The notes beneath the pieces are model-generated. The model was not told the DNA's origin. It searched no databases and saw only the letters and a list, made by a program, of their open reading frames with translations. Source: Candidatus Omnitrophota bacterium (GTDB lineage Bacteria; Omnitrophota; Gorgyraeia; Duberdicusellales; 4484-171). Taken from it: DNA of 64,000 nucleotides. Below, piece after piece: positions 3,227 through 42,833 of this stretch. Location: positions 32,342 through 96,341 of the forward strand of contig JAFGQU010000016.1 of assembly GCA_016935525.1 (NCBI GenBank), in the 5' to 3' direction. Positions within the stretch are counted from its first letter, which is position 1. Each line of letters begins with the position of its first letter. The translations under genes were made by a program, and so were the position numbers.

Positions 3227-3260
3227 ACGTGTGACCTTGTGACTATGTGACCTTGTGACC
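3227..3260 (+). promoter_or_regulatory. TGTGAC octamer tandem array (acgtgtgaccttgtgactatgtgaccttgtgacc)
   Basis: Four tandem TGTGACYW units; lies in the divergent intergenic region between NYN (-) and nadX (+). Confidence 0.55.
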
Positions 3261-3340
3261 TGTATTTATAAACTTCTTGCCCAATATCCCTCTTGTAATA
3301 TAATAAGGTTTACAATATATAGTATTATTAACGTATTTCC

Positions 3341-3374
3341 ACGTGTGACGTGTGACCTTGTGACTATGTGACCT
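3341..3374 (+). promoter_or_regulatory. TGTGAC octamer tandem array immediately upstream of the nadX start (ATG 3384)
   Basis: acgtgtgacgtgtgaccttgtgactatgtgacc ends 10 nt before the ATG; no SD is present. Confidence 0.55.
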
Positions 3375-4187: not shown

Positions 4188-4192
4188 TAAAA

Positions 4193-4242
4193 GTCACACG
4201 ACACACGCCCGCCTGTCGGCGAGCTAGTCACATAGACACACG
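4193..4242 (-). promoter_or_regulatory. Inverted-orientation copy of the TGTGAC array (gtcacacgacacacg ... gtcacatagacacacg)
   Basis: Reverse complement of the cgtgtgtcgtgtgac / cgtgtgtctatgtgac units; located just 3' of the nadX stop. Confidence 0.45.
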
Positions 4243-4243
4243 T

Positions 4244-4262
4244 AAACCTGCTTCGCAGGTTG
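4244..4262 (+). terminator. Candidate stem-loop (aacctgc-ttc-gcaggtt) after nadX
   Basis: Perfect 7-bp stem with a 3-nt loop; the downstream sequence is only weakly T-rich, so intrinsic-terminator status is uncertain. Confidence 0.3.
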
Positions 4263-4300
4263 ATTACACAACACATTTTAATTGTATTTTCTTTCTCTTC

Positions 4301-4334
4301 ACGTGTGACCTTGTGACTATGTGACCTTGTGACC
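4301..4334 (+). promoter_or_regulatory. TGTGAC octamer tandem array immediately upstream of uvrA
   Basis: acgtgtgaccttgtgactatgtgaccttgtgacc ends 9 nt before the ATG at 4344; no SD; the ORF-track GTG start at 4329 lies inside the motif. Confidence 0.55.
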
Positions 4335-4343
4335 TGTATAACT

Positions 4344-7149: not shown

Positions 7150-7179
7150 CCCGTTTGCCCGTTACCCCGTTCACCCGTT
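7150..7179 (+). repeat. CCCGTT heptad direct repeats (cccgtttgcccgttaccccgttcacccgtt), followed by cgtaacgcgg
   Basis: 4 tandem CCCGTTNN units in the uvrA-TPR intergenic region; same family as 238-267, 37924-38012 and 39364-39442. Confidence 0.6.
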
Positions 7180-9666: not shown

Positions 9667-9689
9667 ATATGAATATAGAAATATGTTCA

Positions 9690-9835
9690 CTTACGCTCGC
9701 GAAATACGCCCACAGGGCGAAATAAGTGGCACTTCGTGCCACGAAATACAATTGTATTTCGCGGAGTGAAACGGAGCATATTTCACGAGTGTAGCGAGTA
9801 TATTTCGCAAAACGAAGTGCAGCATATTTCTATAT
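9690..9835. repeat. ~150-nt palindromic GAAATAC/GTATTTCG repeat element, copy 1
   Basis: Centre is a perfect 18-bp palindrome gaaatacaattgtatttc (9743-9760), with an adjacent hairpin gtggcac-ttc-gtgccac; the left arm carries cgaaatac repeats and the right arm tatttcgc repeats; homologous to 33285-33435. Confidence 0.65.
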
Positions 9836-9857
9836 ATTTAAATTAAGGAGGACCCAC

Positions 9858-21905: not shown

Positions 21906-22221
21906 TTTACCGTGTACCCGTACATTTTGTTTCTTCTCCAGAATGGTTGAGTTATTTTGAGTATTAGATATAATATACTTTCCCCTTTGAGGGAAGCGTC
22001 GCTCGTGGACAGTATCTGGTGGAGGAAAAGAGACAAAAACTATATACTAGAGACCAGAGACTAGAGACTGAAATTAGCACATAATGGGCCGGTAGTTTCC
22101 CGATATCGCCCGATTTCTAGTAAGCTCATCGGGATCAGCCTGTATAAGAGAATTAAGGTCGCTGACAGTCGGGATTATATCTGTTTTAAGTACAAATGTT
22201 CATTATAGTAGTTATAAAAAT

Positions 22222-22294
22222 GGGCCGGTAGTTCAGTTGGGAGAACACTTCGTTCGCAACGAAGGGGTCGGCAGTTCGAATCTGCTCCGGTCCA
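22222..22294 (+). tRNA. tRNA-Ala (anticodon CGC); CCA not encoded
   Basis: Cloverleaf folded by hand: acceptor gggccgg/ccggtcc with G3:U70, D-stem gttc/gaac, anticodon stem cttcg/cgaag with loop ttCGCaa, T-stem ggcag/ctgct with loop ttcgaat, discriminator A. Confidence 0.85.
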
Positions 22295-22345
22295 TTTTAA
22301 ATAGCGTATAGCGGCTAGCGGATAGCGATTAGTGATAGATTGAAA
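22278..22345 (+). repeat. Direct repeat A: tRNA 3' end (17 nt) plus ~50 nt downstream flank
   Basis: About 90% identical to 22463-22530 (gaatctgctccggtccattttaaatagcgtatagcggctagcg...attgaaaa). Confidence 0.7.
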
Positions 22346-22462
22346 AGAGAGTAAGAAGAGAGAGGGCAGATGAGGACTTCGCAGCGAGAGCTGCGATGGA
22401 GGTCGCGAAAGCGCGCGAAGCGCGCTGGAGTCCATAGGGATTGCGTGCAATCCCGGTCATGG

Positions 22463-22530
22463 GAATCTGCTCCGGTCCATTTTAAATAGCGTATAGCGGC
22501 TAGCGATTAGCGGTTAGTGATAAATTGAAA
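22463..22530 (+). repeat. Direct repeat B: duplicated tRNA 3' fragment plus flank, attR-like
   Basis: The exact 17-mer gaatctgctccggtcca is present without the 5' half of the tRNA. Confidence 0.7.
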
Positions 22531-22671
22531 AAAATCGCCTCGCTGTCACCCCGGAGTAATATCAGGCAAGAGATTTTCTTTTTTAGTGGTACACTCTGTT
22601 AAAGAGAAAATGTGCCGGCAGCATAGGTAAATATACTCCATTGTAGACAAGAGATATCCCTCTATCAGTAT

Positions 22672-26424: not shown

Positions 26425-26606
26425 CGGTGAGAGGATAGAGTGAAGAGAATTAGCAATGTCCAATTAGCAATTATCAGTTAGCAATGAGAGAAAGAATAGG
26501 GAGAGAAACTCCGGATTTTAAATTGCTAATTGCTAAATGCTAATTTTGCATTGATCATTTATATTAAACGTGTGATCGGCTTGTTTTCACCTGCGCGGCG
26601 GAGGTA

Positions 26607-27996: not shown

Positions 27997-28027
27997 CGTG
28001 TGACGTGTGACTATGTGTCGTGTGACT
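27997..28027 (+). promoter_or_regulatory. TGTGAC octamer tandem array immediately upstream of rluB
   Basis: cgtgtgacgtgtgactatgtgtcgtgtgac ends 5 nt before the ATG at 28033; no SD. Confidence 0.55.
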
Positions 28028-33280: not shown

Positions 33281-33284
33281 ATCC

Positions 33285-33435
33285 GAAGCGCGAAAGAGCT
33301 TTAGAAAAATGCAGTCGAAATACGATAGAAATACATGGAAATACAATCGTATTTCACGCAGCATCAGCGGAGTGTATTTCGTGTAGCGTAGCGAAACATA
33401 TTTCGCGAAGTAGAACGAAGCATATTTCAGTAAAG
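33285..33435. repeat. ~150-nt palindromic GAAATAC/GTATTTCG repeat element, copy 2
   Basis: Central gaaatacaatcgtatttc (33339-33356); same arm composition as 9690-9835. Confidence 0.65.
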
Positions 33436-33439
33436 CGAT

Positions 33440-37013: not shown

Positions 37014-37904
37014 GTGAGCATGGAAGTGTATGTAGAAGCTTTTCTGGATTATCTCAAAGTAGAAAAAGGGCTTGCGGCCAATTCGATCTTGTCCTATCAT
37101 CGCGACCTTAAAAAATATATCCGGTTTCTCGCGGCTCGGCATATTGGGGAGATAAAAAGCATAAAAAGAGAAGAGATCGTCGATTTTCTGTTTACCTTAA
37201 GAAAAAAGAACGCGACCAGCAGTATTGCCCGGATGGTATCCAGCTTGAAAAGTTTTCACCGGTTCCTTTTCCGGGAAAAGATCACCCGGGACGACCCGGC
37301 CGAACTCATCGATACTCCCCGGATGGATAAGAACATCCCCGATATCCTTTCCGGAGATGAAGTCCAGCGTCTCCTGAAATCGCCCAATCCTAAGAACCGG
37401 CAGGGAATACGCGACCGGGCTATGTTAGAGCTTATGTACGCGACGGGATTAAGAGTTTCGGAAGTATCGACTTTGACGGTTGAAAATATTAATATGGATG
37501 TAGGGTTCTTGCGGTGCCGCGGTAAAGGTTCCAAAGAACGGATAGTCCCGCTGGGCGGTATGGCCAGAAAATTTATTTTGCGATATTTGGAAACAGCCCG
37601 TCCCCAGCTTCTCAAAAACAAAAACAGTACCTATCTGTTTTTAGCTCAAGGCGGGCGGATTTTGAGCCGCCAGAGTATCTGGAAAATGATCAAAAGACTG
37701 GTAAAAGAAGCAAAGATCAAAAAACGGGTCACGCCCCATACGTTGCGCCATTCGTTTGCGACCCATCTTTTGGAACATGGCGCCGATCTGCGCAGCGTAC
37801 AGGAAATGCTGGGGCATGCCAGTATTACTACTACTCAGCTCTATACGCATATTAACCGGTCACGGTTAAAAGAGATCCATACCCGGTTTCATCCGAGAGC
37901 CTAA
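37014..37904 (+). CDS. xerD: Tyrosine recombinase XerC/XerD
   Basis: N-terminal SAM-like domain; C-terminal R ... HxxR ... Y catalytic residues (HTLRHSFATHLL ... LGHASITTTQLYTH). Confidence 0.8.
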   Translation: MSMEVYVEAFLDYLKVEKGLAANSILSYHRDLKKYIRFLAARHIGEIKSIKREEIVDFLFTLRKKNATSSIARMVSSLKSFHRFLFREKITRDDPAELIDTPRMDKNIPDILSGDEVQRLLKSPNPKNRQGIRDRAMLELMYATGLRVSEVSTLTVENINMDVGFLRCRGKGSKERIVPLGGMARKFILRYLETARPQLLKNKNSTYLFLAQGGRILSRQSIWKMIKRLVKEAKIKKRVTPHTLRHSFATHLLEHGADLRSVQEMLGHASITTTQLYTHINRSRLKEIHTRFHPRA

Positions 37905-37923
37905 GGGGAGAGAATGAAGGTTA

Positions 37924-38012
37924 GCCCGTTGACCCGTTTGCCCGTTCAACCCGTTCTAAAAACGGGATAACGGGAATCCCCCTGTGGCGGGAAACGCGAG
38001 CACGGGCGAACC
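37924..38012 (+). repeat. Bipartite CCCGTT-heptad / AACGGG inverted-repeat element with conserved tail (aatcccNctgNggcgggaaacgcg), copy upstream of the cca gene
   Basis: cccgttgacccgtttgcccgttcaacccgtt-ctaaaa-acgggataacggg forms a long imperfect hairpin, followed by a second small hairpin. Confidence 0.6.
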
Positions 38013-38032
38013 GGTTGAAAGGTTAGAAAAAG

Positions 38033-39319
38033 ATGTTTGTAAAGAAGATCGAAAAATTACCGTCGAACGTAAAAAGGGTACTGAAAAGATCTTCGGTCCT
38101 TTCCCGAAAACTGGATGTCGCGATATATCTGGTAGGCGGGATCGTCCGTGATTTTATCTTAGGCCGGGATAATTTTGACCTGGATATTGTCGTTGAAGGG
38201 GACGGGCTTAAATTTGCGCATGCGTTGGGAGAGCATTATAAAGCCGATTTTCGTAAACACCATTCTTTCGGTACGGCAACGGTGTATTTCAAAGGATTTA
38301 AAGTAGATATCGCGACGGCCCGCCGGGAATCCTACCCTCATCCGGGAGCGCTCCCGGTCATTACCCGATCAACGTTAAAAGAAGACCTTATCCGCCGGGA
38401 TTTTTCGATTAACGCGATGGCACTCAGTCTTAACCGGGATGATTACGGCGGGTTGATCGATTATTATAAAGGATATACCGACCTTCGAGACGGGATAATC
38501 CGGGTGCTCCATGACCGGAGTTTCACCGACGACCCGACCCGTATTTTTCGTGCCATACGCTTTGAACAGAGATTCGGCTTCCGCATGAGGAGGGGTACTC
38601 TTAAGTTACTCAAAAGCGCTCTGGCTAAAGGAGCGCTTAAGACCGTGAATGAACAACGCCTTCGTGACGAATTGGCGCTTATGTTTGAAGAAGAACATCC
38701 TTCCCGTTGCGTAAAAAGGGTACAGGCTCTTATCGGCTGGAGATTTTTAAACGCGCAGGTACGGTTATCGTCGAAAGAGCTGGCGTTATTCCGCCATTTA
38801 GACGAGACCGTCCGGGTATACCAAAAATCCTTTCCACATTACCCTAAAGTAGACCGGAGAGCATTGTATTTTGCCGGGTTACTTTTGCCGTTGGACGTAA
38901 AAGAGGTCCTTACGGTTTCGGCCCGGTTCGGGTTACGTAAAAACGAACGGACAGTGGCCCTTGCCGTCGGGAAAGCCTATCGTAAGATATACCGGGTATG
39001 CCGGGGCCGGATCGATCCGGTGAGATTGTATACGGTCCTTTCCGGTTATCCGCTGGAAGTGATTTTGTTTTGTTACGCGTATTATTACCGTAACCGCACT
39101 GTAAAGAAGAACCTTTTATTTTATCTGGATAAACTGTTCGGAGTATCGTTAAAAGTCCGCGGTCGGGACTTGAAAAAACTGGGGTTCGGCCCGGAAAGAT
39201 CTTACAGTAAAGTGTTCACTAAACTGTTACATAAAAAGATCGAAAAGGATTTCCGTTCGCGCCGGGAAGAGTTAAAAGAGCTTAAAAAGTTGGCAAAAGA
39301 CCATTTGCGCAAGAAGTGA
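38033..39319 (+). CDS. tRNA nucleotidyltransferase / poly(A) polymerase family protein
   Basis: PolyA_pol head domain LVGGIVRDFILGRDNFDLDIVVEGDG; RNA-binding C-terminal region. Confidence 0.7.
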   Translation: MFVKKIEKLPSNVKRVLKRSSVLSRKLDVAIYLVGGIVRDFILGRDNFDLDIVVEGDGLKFAHALGEHYKADFRKHHSFGTATVYFKGFKVDIATARRESYPHPGALPVITRSTLKEDLIRRDFSINAMALSLNRDDYGGLIDYYKGYTDLRDGIIRVLHDRSFTDDPTRIFRAIRFEQRFGFRMRRGTLKLLKSALAKGALKTVNEQRLRDELALMFEEEHPSRCVKRVQALIGWRFLNAQVRLSSKELALFRHLDETVRVYQKSFPHYPKVDRRALYFAGLLLPLDVKEVLTVSARFGLRKNERTVALAVGKAYRKIYRVCRGRIDPVRLYTVLSGYPLEVILFCYAYYYRNRTVKKNLLFYLDKLFGVSLKVRGRDLKKLGFGPERSYSKVFTKLLHKKIEKDFRSRREELKELKKLAKDHLRKK

Positions 39320-39363
39320 CTTTAAGGTATAATTTAGGGTTTTAGAAGGCAGAAATAGGTTCG

Positions 39364-39442
39364 CCCGTGTACTCGTTACCCCGTGTGCCTGTTTTTGAAG
39401 AACGGGAGAACGGGAATCCCGCCTGCGGCGGGGAACGCGCCA
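39364..39442 (+). repeat. Second full copy of the CCCGTT/AACGGG bipartite element, downstream of the cca gene
   Basis: cccgtgtactcgttaccccgtgtgcc ... aacgggagaacgggaatcccgcctgcggcggggaacgcg; tail hairpin cccgcc-tgc-ggcggg. Confidence 0.6.
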
Positions 39443-39465
39443 ACCTCAGATACACAACGGGCCAT

Positions 39466-39744
39466 ATGTTTATCGGATATTTGCGGGTAGAACTTTTTAT
39501 CCCTCATAGCCGGTCTTTGAAAGACAAGCGGCAAGTCGTACTCAGTATTAAACAGCGCCTGCGGCAGCGGTTTAATATCTCGATCGCGGAAGAACCTTCG
39601 GATAAATGGCAGCGGTGCCGGCTTGCCTGTGTCTATGTGAACTATCATCGTGGGGAAGTAGGCAATACTCTTGCCAAGGTCGAAGAGAATGTTCGTAATC
39701 ATATCCATTTTCAGGTGATCGATTCGGAATACGAGGTGTTTTGA
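39466..39744 (+). CDS. DUF503 (YlxP-like) protein
   Basis: About 93 aa from MFIGYLRVELFIPHSRSLKDKRQVV; conserved position immediately upstream of rbfA; the ORF-track start at 39367 runs through the repeat element. Confidence 0.6.
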   Translation: MFIGYLRVELFIPHSRSLKDKRQVVLSIKQRLRQRFNISIAEEPSDKWQRCRLACVYVNYHRGEVGNTLAKVEENVRNHIHFQVIDSEYEVF

Positions 39745-42720: not shown

Positions 42721-42833
42721 TCCCACCGATATCCACAACTTGTTGTGTTCCAATGATTTATTTAGAAAAATTCTTGACAGAGAAAAAGAGGGGTATTATT
42801 ATAAATATGTGTAATAAAGTGGAGTGAAGTGGA

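Follow-up and report, generated by a model that had tools for sequence, protein, structure and literature searches.

Repeat elements around the CCA-enzyme gene

Examination of a 64,000-nucleotide stretch of Candidatus Omnitrophota DNA, hereafter the window, revealed a gene of the CCA-adding enzyme/poly(A) polymerase family (38033-39319, + strand) that is bracketed by two full elements of about 90 nt. Both elements, 78% identical in alignment, are present on either side of this gene as the original prediction had stated. Copy 1 (37919-38012, + strand; 113.9 bits with the covariance model) lies in the xerD-to-cca spacer, where it begins 15 nt past the xerD stop and ends 20 nt short of the cca ATG. 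Copy 2 (39357-39446, + strand; 104.2 bits) lies in the 5' leader of DUF503-rbfA-nrnA-truB and its 3' end falls 19 nt before the DUF503 ATG at 39466. The elements had been placed correctly at 37924-38012 and 39364-39442, but both are longer than these limits.

A full element is an imperfect palindrome made of four forward units CCCGTTNN, two plus two to three inverse units AACGGGNN and a small GC side hairpin. The repeat unit of its arrays measures 8 nt according to TRF and is not the heptad read earlier. In copy 1, the four forward units (37925-37955) are followed by two inverse units, AACGGGAT and AACGGG (37961-37974), pairing with forward units 4 and 3, then by the side hairpin CCCCC-TGT-GGCGGG (37978-37991) and by the distal inverse units AACGCGAG CACGGGCG AACC (37993-38012), whose pairing with forward units 2 and 1 closes the long hairpin. 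In copy 2, the forward units (39364-39393) are degenerate (CCCGTG, CTCGTT, CCCGTG, CCTGTT), with the same degenerate pattern in the orthologs; they precede two inverse units, AACGGGAG and AACGGG (39401-39414), the side hairpin CCCGCC-TGC-GGCGGG (39418-39432) and the distal inverse units AACGCGCC AACCT (39434-39446), which pair with AGGTTCGCCCGT at 39357-39368. All of these components were read on the + strand. The first forward unit is GGTTAGCCCGT or GGTTCGCCCGT, and its partners are the inverse units distal to what had been described as a conserved tail. The pairing of the forward repeats with AACGGGA units was thus rightly seen, but its extent of about 14 bp was underestimated because the first forward unit also pairs beyond the tail; the whole element is an imperfect hairpin of about 30 pairs plus the side hairpin. 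It fills almost the entire spacer, with its base 19-20 nt 5' of the next start codon (12 nt at metX, the site of a third copy).

Exactly two occurrences of the signature AACGGGANAACGGGAATCCC were counted in the window, where 0.01 would be expected. Three consecutive CCCGTTNN units, with up to 3 mismatches, match 12 times against 0.09 expected, and the matches fall in four intergenic clusters of the + strand (238-267, 7150-7179, 37925-37955 and 39364-39393).

The open reading frame of DUF503 had been over-extended across copy 2. Its start within the element, remarked on from the outset, is an annotation artefact, and the corrected coding sequence spans 39466-39744 (+ strand), with the Pfam DUF503 domain covering residues 3-88 counted from the ATG at 39466. 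The GTG-started frame 39367-39744 was rejected as coding since stop codons interrupt it in the ortholog L128, and a coding sequence or leader peptide through copy 2 was likewise rejected because L128 shows two indels of 1 nt as well as stops in frame. Just 5' of copy 2 lies a promoter-like TTGCGC-17 nt-TATAAT (39305-39333, + strand), read from the sequence and absent from the consensus-scan list, its -35 hexamer matching at 3 of 6 positions only. Four genomes share the TATAAT without change, and the distant relative L133 has TTGATA-17-TATAAT at the matching position. Inspection of the arrays themselves by eye gave no convincing match to an ECF-type or sigma-70 promoter. An intrinsic (Rho-independent) terminator, one of the functions first proposed, was rejected: neither element holds a listed + strand site, no T-run follows the arms and the sense strand has no U-tract after any arm. 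Copy 2, moreover, sits 3' of the promoter-like site, within the DUF503 leader.

Conservation at orthologous sites

A search with the covariance model detected a third full copy in the same genome (L137 1013-1102; 69 bits, E = 1e-17), situated 5' of metX and inverted relative to its genes. The three full copies refer to the approximately 82 kb of this genome that were read. Extension of the window contig past its end genes yielded only short Logan contigs, which added about 5.3 kb at one end and about 0.85 kb at the other. In every case the copy begins 1-37 nt past a stop codon, and 12-20 nt separate its end from the next ATG; the positions of the elements are clearly non-random relative to genes.

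All three copies have a counterpart in the orthologous spacer of GCA_964483625.1 (two in L128 and one in L067). Copy 1 is 79% identical to its ortholog (L128 8116-8240) and copy 2 84% identical to its own (L128 9528-9675) and 92% identical to that of L127, while the metX copy and its L067 counterpart share 53% identity only. Against the same genome, four-fold sites in the flanking genes are 26-42% identical, that is, saturated, and most other spacers are 30-55% identical. Comparable conservation of spacers was found only at the mraZ promoter/operator region (79%) and in regions with TGTGAC arrays. Set against these saturated sites and divergent spacers, the identities of 79% and 84% argue that both window elements have been under purifying selection; they have stayed intact far longer than neutral DNA and therefore probably have a function of some kind.

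Copies within one genome are about 70-78% alike. The orthologs have in common copy-specific degenerate units and one copy-specific deletion, which indicates that their similarity is vertical and local and does not stem from the copies having been homogenised to a consensus of the family. Over the entire leader of copy 2, unique sequence included, conservation is 84-92%. The elements are nevertheless dispensable, as L130 is devoid of both and L127 of the upstream one, and their presence and absence are discordant with the tree (W+, L127-, L128+, L130-).

Tandem arrays across the window

Tandem arrays with a period of 6-9 nt are far more numerous in the window than expected from Markov simulations (26 against 0.8), and 19 of the 26 are intergenic, in 7.8% of the window, where 0.1 are expected. 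Like long simple sequence repeats, they are longer than composition predicts and mostly non-coding, and they often occur as inverted pairs able to form hairpins. Folding z-scores below -2 were obtained for 10/21 spacers of the window against 2/25 coding controls; spacers able to form hairpins are thus common throughout this window, and the element is one instance of a genome-wide repeat habit. The unit families CCCGTT, TGTGACCT, TAGCGG and AGAGACT recur at different places in both genomes.

Two sites consist of four CCCGTTNN units alone. The first (238-267, + strand) lies 22 nt past the stop of a minus-strand ORF (289-525), in a spacer (90-288) that folds with a z of -2.7. The same spacer holds the heptamer array CGTAACG x4.4 (107-137, + strand), which contains AACGCG, the hexamer of the distal inverse units of full elements, and which is possibly an imperfect partner of the array at 238-267. 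The second site (7150-7179, + strand) lies 36 nt 5' of the ATG (7216) of a TPR gene and is absent as a conserved feature in the relative L136. The arrays that had been predicted as half-elements at these sites are real, but they are not equivalent to full elements, the array at 7150 being unconserved in a relative.

A search of genome contigs with CCCGTTNNCCCGTTNNCCCGTT gave at least 120 loci from many phyla, nearly all of them plain tandem octamer arrays, which are thus widespread; among the matches listed, about 9% had inverse arrays nearby. A search of metagenomes with AACGGGANAACGGGAATCCC returned five matches, all due to chance and inside coding sequence. Nothing specific was found in the literature on repeats of Omnitrophota.

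This abundance of arrays, together with the occurrence of CCCGTTNN arrays in many phyla, is compatible with functionless remains of a non-autonomous mobile element (MITE- or REPIN-like) or with slippage repeats, kept by concerted evolution between units or arms. As in MITEs, the ends are inverted repeats of the form GGTT(A/C)GCCCGT (GGTTAGCCCGT agrees with the reverse complement of ACGGGCGAACC at 10/11 positions), and over 24 nt the complementarity between the end of copy 1 (3') and the beginning of copy 2 (5') reaches 83%. Copy 1 lies between two direct occurrences of the 8-nt sequence AAGGTTAG, and AAAGGTT flanks its L128 counterpart; copies are found in both orientations and, as described above, their distribution does not follow the tree. 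Orthologous sites devoid of the element are present in L127 and L130, where they hold other arrays or a shorter leader in place of a clean empty site. However, no clear target-site duplication was seen at the other two copies. The limited resemblance of copies within the genome speaks against recent spread, and orthologous copies have remained 79-84% identical despite saturated neutral sites and neighbouring spacers that have turned over. Homogenisation does not account for the conservation of copy-specific degenerate units and of unique loop and leader sequences either. We consider this origin rather improbable.

The arrays could instead, as the original prediction also allowed, be bound as double-stranded DNA by a lineage-specific protein that occupies successive direct or inverted 8-bp units and controls the downstream genes. 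Ribbon-helix-helix proteins are known to bind unit arrays of this sort: MetJ recognises tandem 8-bp metboxes, and omega and ParG recognise units of 7-8 bp. Such an operator would fit the conservation of the CCCGTT core in each unit next to two variable spacer bases, the conservation of sequence and not of pairing alone, the recurrence of several unit families at various places in both genomes, the existence of sites with arrays only and the location of copy 2 just 3' of the promoter-like site. Duplex recognition would also tolerate both orientations relative to genes. On the other hand, no candidate protein was identified, many unit families in a small genome would require many regulators, an operator would not be expected to contain a central GC hairpin that is conserved but has variable loops, and the array-only site at 7150 is unconserved. 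An operator array is accordingly judged unlikely, if still worth weighing.

The minus strand of the copy 1 array reads G3N5G3N5G3N6G3, a canonical G-quadruplex motif, and 3/5 canonical motifs of the 64-kb window are the minus strands of CCCGTT arrays, at 238, 7150 and 37925. Each of these arrays has exactly four G3 tracts, and L067 has four perfect units. With their placement between aligned ORFs and their G-rich strand non-coding 5' of the ORF, they recall the GGGNATC repeats (PMC4692102), and a G-quadruplex or i-motif formed by the tracts opposite the genes might modulate transcription or replication, the inverse units providing a competing hairpin. Four tracts of the type G3+N1-7 are nevertheless missing from copy 2 and L128_dn: in copy 2 and its L128 ortholog, which form the best conserved pair, just two C3 tracts are present. 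Most other array families (TGTGACCT, AATTAGC, CGTAACG, TAGCGG) are incapable of forming such a structure, and the array at 7150, although capable of it, is unconserved. The probability of this explanation appears very small.

RNA folding and comparison with known families

All copies fold better than dinucleotide shuffles (z from -2.2 to -5.5), copy 1 with an MFE of -39.1 (z -2.8) and copy 2 with an MFE of -37.9 (z -2.2). Paired cells make up 98.6% of the fitted alignment. Non-Watson-Crick cells on the C-first strand comprise 7 G-T against 0 A-C, a bias that derives from an alignment fitted to that strand, and the folding energies of single sequences do not consistently favour either strand. 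The small hairpin predicted in the tail was recovered as the GC side hairpin of each copy, its stem kept in all of them, with variable loops (TGT, TGC, TAT, TTT, TTCAG) and one compensatory change from U-A to A-U. Of the two properties that the original prediction had proposed as a check, non-random placement relative to genes was confirmed, whereas compensatory changes were essentially lacking over the element as a whole: 18 of the 27 pairs are invariant across the alignment, and the single compensatory pair among the 27 represents a level reached in 113/500 shuffles, the sequences being few and too similar. Conservation of the elements is at the sequence level, loops included, which is more than a purely structural role requires.

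We read the element as an intergenic palindrome that is specific to this lineage, is maintained by selection and consists of 8-nt units with an embedded GC hairpin; its family is real, conserved at orthologous sites, foldable and regularly placed relative to genes. The explanation that we prefer, tentatively and with somewhat less than even confidence, is an intercistronic or 5'-UTR RNA hairpin of the REP/ERIC kind. The element would be transcribed within the mRNA, copy 1 and the metX copy being intercistronic and copy 2 lying within a 5' leader, 3' of the conserved -10 box. The transcript would fold into a three-way hairpin of about 30 pairs and act like REP, ERIC or other intercistronic stem-loops, by blocking exonucleases, by offering a site for double-strand-specific processing or by uncoupling the stability and translation of adjacent cistrons. 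From the sequences we infer transcription, action at the RNA level and an effect on stability, processing or translation. In support of an RNA hairpin we count the three copies, their orthologous conservation, the folding z-scores, the G-T bias, the regular spacing to genes, the conserved TATAAT and the richness of the spacers in hairpins. Against it we count the insignificant covariation, the strand-neutral folding energies, the absence of the element from relatives, the array-only sites, which are incapable of forming the hairpin, and the metX copy, whose inversion relative to its genes rules out a sequence-specific RNA role common to every copy.

The two window copies are found 5' of genes for tRNA and ribosome maturation, and the repeat units permit several pairing registers. 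Together with the conservation of the entire copy 2 leader, unique sequence too, this might point to a leader RNA with a specific regulatory role, responsive to a protein, a ligand or temperature and controlling the RNA-maturation genes cca and DUF503-rbfA-nrnA-truB, with array and anti-array as alternative partners. The inverted third copy 5' of metX, the lack of covariation, the lack of an Rfam family even at E up to 10 and the close relatives that manage without the element make such a leader quite improbable, and the more general RNA hairpin remains our preferred explanation.

A more speculative idea, in which we place little confidence, is that 7-8-nt arrays (CCCGTTNN, TGTGACCT and others) located 5-40 nt 5' of start codons form a recognition code of lineage-specific trans-acting factors that control transcription or the initiation of translation. 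Under this idea the CCCGTT/AACGGG element would represent a self-masking version of the code, in which array and anti-array make a switchable hairpin. If true, this would constitute a new type of cis-regulatory architecture and not a REP-like passenger. Tandem repeats of 7-8 nt in spacers have long been catalogued in Xanthomonas, Nostoc and Beggiatoaceae without an assigned function. Here, individual arrays and array palindromes carry a demonstrable signature of purifying selection: they have remained 79-95% identical against a background of saturated synonymous sites and of free turnover in adjacent spacers and other arrays. This provides a testable set of functional and non-functional repeats in one lineage. 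Our findings suggest that part of Omnitrophota gene regulation runs through such elements.

No Rfam family was found to include the element. At Rfam gathering scores only a tRNA-Ala was matched, and at E up to 10 over 37800-39560 three chance-level matches were obtained, all below their gathering scores; one of them, the eukaryotic lncRNA model RF02175, overlaps copy 2 at 39386-39517 with 15.7 bits against a gathering score of 60. The predicted likeness to REP sequences is fair as a functional analogy: like REP/BIME, ERIC and REPINs, the elements are imperfect palindromes (about 40-130 nt in these families) that occur in either orientation, can form long hairpins, are dispersed in co-directional spacers, transcribed in the known families, and are variably present at orthologous sites. 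The analogy does not extend to the REP/REPIN head, GT(A/G)G in a palindrome of 20-40 nt, which was not found: the ends are GGTT(A/C)GCCCGT and, unlike REP, the element has no GTAG-type head and its arms consist of tandem 8-nt units. The hallmark of REP/REPIN is the presence of hundreds of extragenic copies with a cognate RAYT (Y1 transposase) gene. Here, the roughly 82 kb read contained three full copies, which are 70-78% alike and each conserved at its own locus over a deep split. We know of no RAYT transposase for the Omnitrophota copies.

Integron attC sites are imperfect palindromes of 57-141 nt that follow each ORF in a co-directional array and are recognised as folded single strands. The element is likewise a spacer-filling palindrome, and a tyrosine recombinase gene adjoins copy 1. 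An attC site or gene cassette was nonetheless rejected: the polarity of the boxes is reversed (GTT... 5' and ...AAC 3' on both strands, against RYYYAAC...GTTRRRY in attC), and the bracketed genes are housekeeping genes whose order xerD-cca-DUF503-rbfA is kept in relatives without the element, a synteny in which the recombinase, a 296-aa XerC/D-type protein, is conserved as well.

The quadruplex-forming heptamers GGGNATC and GGGGA(C/T)T of Xanthomonas and Nostoc have a G3 tract per unit and a preference for four units, and are found between aligned ORFs, just 5' of the ORF and with the G-rich strand non-coding; inverted arrays able to form stem-loops were noted, and no function was assigned (Rehm et al. 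2015, PMC4692102). The arrays described here resemble them in their short units with a G3 tract, four-unit arrays, intergenic location and inverted arrays. They differ in having an 8-nt unit of another sequence and a fixed architecture with a side hairpin, and the best conserved Omnitrophota copy has lost its G4 potential.

Direct repeats of the heptamer TAACTGA, for which a post-transcriptional role was proposed, are found 5' of start codons in Beggiatoaceae, Cyanobacteria and Bacteroidetes (MacGregor 2015, PMC4679880), and long simple sequence repeats with units of 5-11 nt were described by Mrazek et al. (2007), as cited in PMC4679880. The Omnitrophota arrays share with these repeats their 2-6 tandem units of 7-8 nt near start codons and their occurrence in scattered repeat-rich genomes. 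In contrast to the TAACTGA repeats, many unit families coexist in the Omnitrophota genome, arrays are frequently paired with their own reverse complement, and some of them are conserved across saturated divergence.

Architecture and predicted folding of the elements

Two stretches flanking the gene for the PolyA_pol/CCA enzyme (cca, 38033-39319) align with one another at 78% identity, which confirms the duplication described in the original prediction. The window belongs to a Candidatus Omnitrophica MAG, and its CCA-enzyme protein shares 100% identity with an NCBI entry on a 103,506-nt contig. Genes in this region run in the order ligA, a hypothetical gene, an MBL-fold gene, an xerD-type recombinase (37014-37904), cca, DUF503, rbfA, DHH/DHHA1 and truB. 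Exactly two instances of the 20-nt signature AACGGGANAACGGGAATCCC are present in the window, where 0.01 would be expected, and a threefold CCCGTTNN pattern with at most 3 mismatches matches 12 times (0.09 expected). The matches group at four intergenic sites on the + strand (238-267, 7150-7179, 37925-37955 and 39364-39393), the first two being the half-elements described earlier. The units, first described as heptads, have a period of 8 in TRF and are octamers.

Copy 1 (37919-38012, + strand) lies in the xerD-cca spacer and consists of GGTTAG, four CCCGTTNN units, a 5-nt loop, the inverse units AACGGGAT and AACGGGAA, a small side hairpin (CCCCC-TGT-GGCGGG) and the distal units AACGCGAG CACGGGCG AACC. 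Copy 2 (39357-39446, + strand), in the leader of DUF503, is laid out likewise, except that its forward units are degenerate and one of the distal inverse units is missing. The back-pairing foreseen earlier stands, but not its extent of ~14 bp: because the first forward units are partnered by the distal units, each element is modelled as an imperfect hairpin of ~30 pairs with a side hairpin, and can thus form a long branched structure in which several pairing registers are possible, the arms being repeats. Folding energies are -39.1 kcal/mol for copy 1 (z = -2.8 relative to dinucleotide shuffles) and -37.9 kcal/mol for copy 2 (z = -2.2). The ORF running through copy 2 from GTG 39367 is an artefact, its frame having stops and two 1-nt indels in the ortholog, and the Pfam DUF503 domain covers the protein starting at ATG 39466.

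A pattern scan revealed a related palindrome directly upstream of metX on contig L067, which belongs to the same assembly as L128, a relative carrying both cca-flanking elements. The ortholog of L067 in the window genome, L137, comes from the SRA sample that also yielded the window's Logan contigs, and harbors a third full element upstream of metX (1013-1102, antisense to the flanking genes) that includes GGGAATCCCGCC-TAT-GGCGGGAAACGCGGGCACGGG and scores 69 bits (E = 1e-17) against a covariance model built from the cca-flanking copies only. The window genome therefore has three full copies within ~82 kb. Both orientations occur among them, and every copy is matched by an ortholog in the other genome. 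Identity within the metX pair is 53%, the array beside the ATG being retained and L067 having lost the side hairpin. Every copy starts 1-37 nt past a stop codon, and in the window genome the base of the element stands 12-20 nt before the next ATG. A simpler CCCGTT/AACGGG hairpin is found 15 nt before a start codon in another Omnitrophota MAG (L098). The elements are established as a real family whose members, whichever way they are oriented, keep a regular position relative to the start codon that follows.

Paired cells make up 98.6% of the alignment behind the six-sequence model, and 18 of 27 pairs are invariant. A single compensatory pair was observed, where the side hairpin has A-U in place of U-A at its base, and the covariation measures were reached in 113 of 500 shuffles, the sequences being too conserved for covariation to weigh for or against the fold. 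On the strand on which the CCCGTT units read, non-Watson-Crick cells comprise 7 G-T (three from the independent, inverted metX copy) and 0 A-C, which hints that this is the folding strand, with the caveat that the alignment was fitted to it. Single-sequence folding energies favour this strand in four copies and the opposite one in three.

Conservation and turnover among relatives

Relatives were fetched contigs with cca homologs, and a tree from cca, xerD and rbfA identities groups them as ((W, L127), (L128, L130)), W being the window genome, with identities of 89-97% for W-L127, 75-90% for L128-L130 and 62-83% across clades. In L128 (GCA_964483625.1) the orthologous spacers carry both elements, 79% (upstream) and 84% (downstream) identical to those of W, and four-fold degenerate sites in xerD, cca, DUF503 and rbfA are saturated (26-42% identical). 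Most other spacers compared between these genomes are 8-55% identical, often with differing arrays, and a similar degree of conservation is reached only by the TGTGAC-array regions near uvrA and by the ribF-mraZ promoter/operator region (79%). The latter spacer (42721-42833) contains TTGACA, a TATTAT box and GTGGA-type repeats directly before mraZ, presumably a conserved mraZ promoter and MraZ operator. Conservation does not extend to the array-only site at 7150, the spacer in the related contig L136 having GCGGATC repeats instead.

Orthologs of the elements have copy-specific traits in common, namely the degenerate units of copy 2, its missing distal unit, the loop sequences and the unique leader GGGTTTTAGAAGGCAGAAATAGG, which argues that the similarity is local and vertical and does not come from homogenisation to a family consensus. 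We read this conservation as purifying selection. The elements are established as old, as vertically inherited and as maintained by selection at specific spacers. A relic mobile element is a less likely explanation of them.

L127 has the downstream element, its upstream spacer carrying TAGCGG and AGAGACT arrays instead; L130 is without either element and has the same upstream spacer as L127. Synteny is identical in the more distant L133 and L134 (cca 48% identity), whose spacers are small (4 and 119 nt upstream of cca, 47 and 14 nt upstream of DUF503), almost devoid of arrays and without the element. This distribution shows that the elements are dispensable and were acquired within this sub-lineage, and the pattern of the upstream one requires at least two events.

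The two forms of the xerD-cca spacer cut across the tree, the CCCGTT element (window 37905-38032, L128 8116-8240) against the TAGCGG and AGAGACT arrays (L127 719-783, L130 1808-1866), which implies that the forms were replaced in parallel, lost differentially from a composite ancestor, or exchanged. Copy 1 is flanked by an 8-nt direct repeat, AAGGTTAG (37917-37924 and 38019-38026; AAAGGTT in L128), which could be a target-site duplication or merely part of the repeat pattern.

Repeat arrays in intergenic spacers

Tandem arrays of period 6-9 and 2.7 or more copies number 26 in the window, where Markov simulations give 0.8; 19 lie in intergenic DNA, which makes up 7.8% of the window, and three more at doubtful gene starts. 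Unit families include TGTGACCT, CGTAACG, TAGCGG, AGAGACT, AATTAGC, TTAGGAT and TAGTCGC. Many arrays share a spacer with their own reverse complement, such as GTCACA with TGTGAC (4192-4338), AATTAGC (5.4 copies) with GCTAATT/AATTGCT (3.6 copies) 35 nt later (26448-26545), and GAAATAC followed by GTATTTC (9667-9857 and 33281-33439). Among spacers of 60-200 nt, 10 of 21 fold with z < -2, compared with 2 of 25 coding controls. From these inverted pairs and folding counts, the CCCGTT element is a local instance of the general way in which this lineage builds spacers.

The GAAATAC/GTATTTC spacers form a further family of very stable inverted-array hairpins (z of -7.9 at 9667-9857 and -3.0 at 33281-33439). 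On contig L132 (7508-7548) AATTAGC-family units adjoin CCCGTT and TAGCGG arrays, indicating that spacers are mosaics of unit families. Octamer arrays of TGTGACCT (3230-3261, 3344-3374 and 4300-4338; also 2220-2250 and 27997-28026) end 5-10 nt before the starts of an Asp-dehydrogenase-like gene (3384) and uvrA (4344), at both of which a Shine-Dalgarno sequence is absent. By eye, these arrays and much of the surrounding 5' region are near-identical to their L136 counterparts (2168-2431 and 3235-3371), with four-fold sites ~40% identical, a conservation visibly tighter than that of the CCCGTT elements; overall identity is 81% for the uvrA spacer and 47% for the full 3384 spacer. For uvrA (window 4329-4343), the GTG at 4329 that opens the longest ORF falls inside the array, the NCBI start being five codons later (928 vs 933 aa). 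The 3' end of tRNA-Ala(CGC) and ~60 nt downstream, including a TAGCGG array, are repeated ~200 nt on at ~22470-22540 (window 22221-22540), resembling a partial tRNA duplication of the att type that encloses a very short insert.

Beyond this lineage, spacers in many phyla carry tandem CCCGTTNN arrays with copy numbers from 3 to more than 10 (loci L001-L120), with hosts such as Longimicrobium, Gemmatimonadota, Streptomyces, Chloroflexota, Desulfobacterales, Bacteroidales and Acidobacteriota. They often adjoin other C-tract octamers such as CACCCTCA, and in Streptomyces come directly after GC-rich terminator-like hairpins.

Possible function and comparison with known repeats

A promoter-like TTGCGC-17-TATAAT (39305-39333) stands ahead of copy 2, overlapping the end of cca. 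W, L127, L128 and L130 show no variation in the TATAAT or its surroundings, and the 47-nt spacer of L133 contains TTGATA-17-TATAAT. Judging from sequence, the insertion of copy 2 evidently separated an ancestral promoter from the start of DUF503, and this copy should be part of the 5' UTR. Copies 1 and 3, which fill spacers starting right after the upstream stop, would be intercistronic. An intercistronic or 5'-UTR hairpin in RNA, which might act on processing, exonuclease protection or the uncoupling of adjacent cistrons, fits where the copies lie, the general richness of spacers in hairpins, and the fact that a near-symmetric hairpin is independent of orientation. We favour this mechanism tentatively, its main rival being an operator array read in duplex DNA, which better explains the conservation of the hexamer cores and even of the loops, and the recurrence of the same unit families elsewhere. 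Of the REP-like terminator or processing structure first suggested, the terminator falls away, as no U-tract follows any arm on the sense strand, and the REP likeness survives as a possible one of function (REP/ERIC-like) but not of class. The elements lack the defining features of REP, attC and terminator classes alike. No Rfam family matches them, and a dedicated riboregulator is a less likely reading.

Genomes rich in 5-11-nt repeats are phylogenetically scattered, according to the account of Mrazek et al. 2007 in PMC4679880. TAACTGA repeats lie directly upstream of start codons, and a post-transcriptional regulator was proposed for them (MacGregor 2015; PMC4679880). GGGNATC repeats prefer four units and sit between aligned ORFs, no more than 50 bp upstream of an ORF and with their G-rich strand on its non-coding side; they formed G4 in vitro, inverted copies capable of stem-loops were noted, and a function was not found (Rehm et al. 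2015; PMC4692102). Of the five canonical G4 motifs in the window, three are the minus strand of CCCGTT arrays. Copy 2, the best conserved, has lost G4 potential and most other unit families cannot form G4; a G4 element is less likely. The element, which no curated RNA family includes, is a new variant in which short-unit tandem repeats are combined with intergenic palindromic repeats, each a known kind, and is unusual and useful in that its conservation can be demonstrated across saturated divergence.
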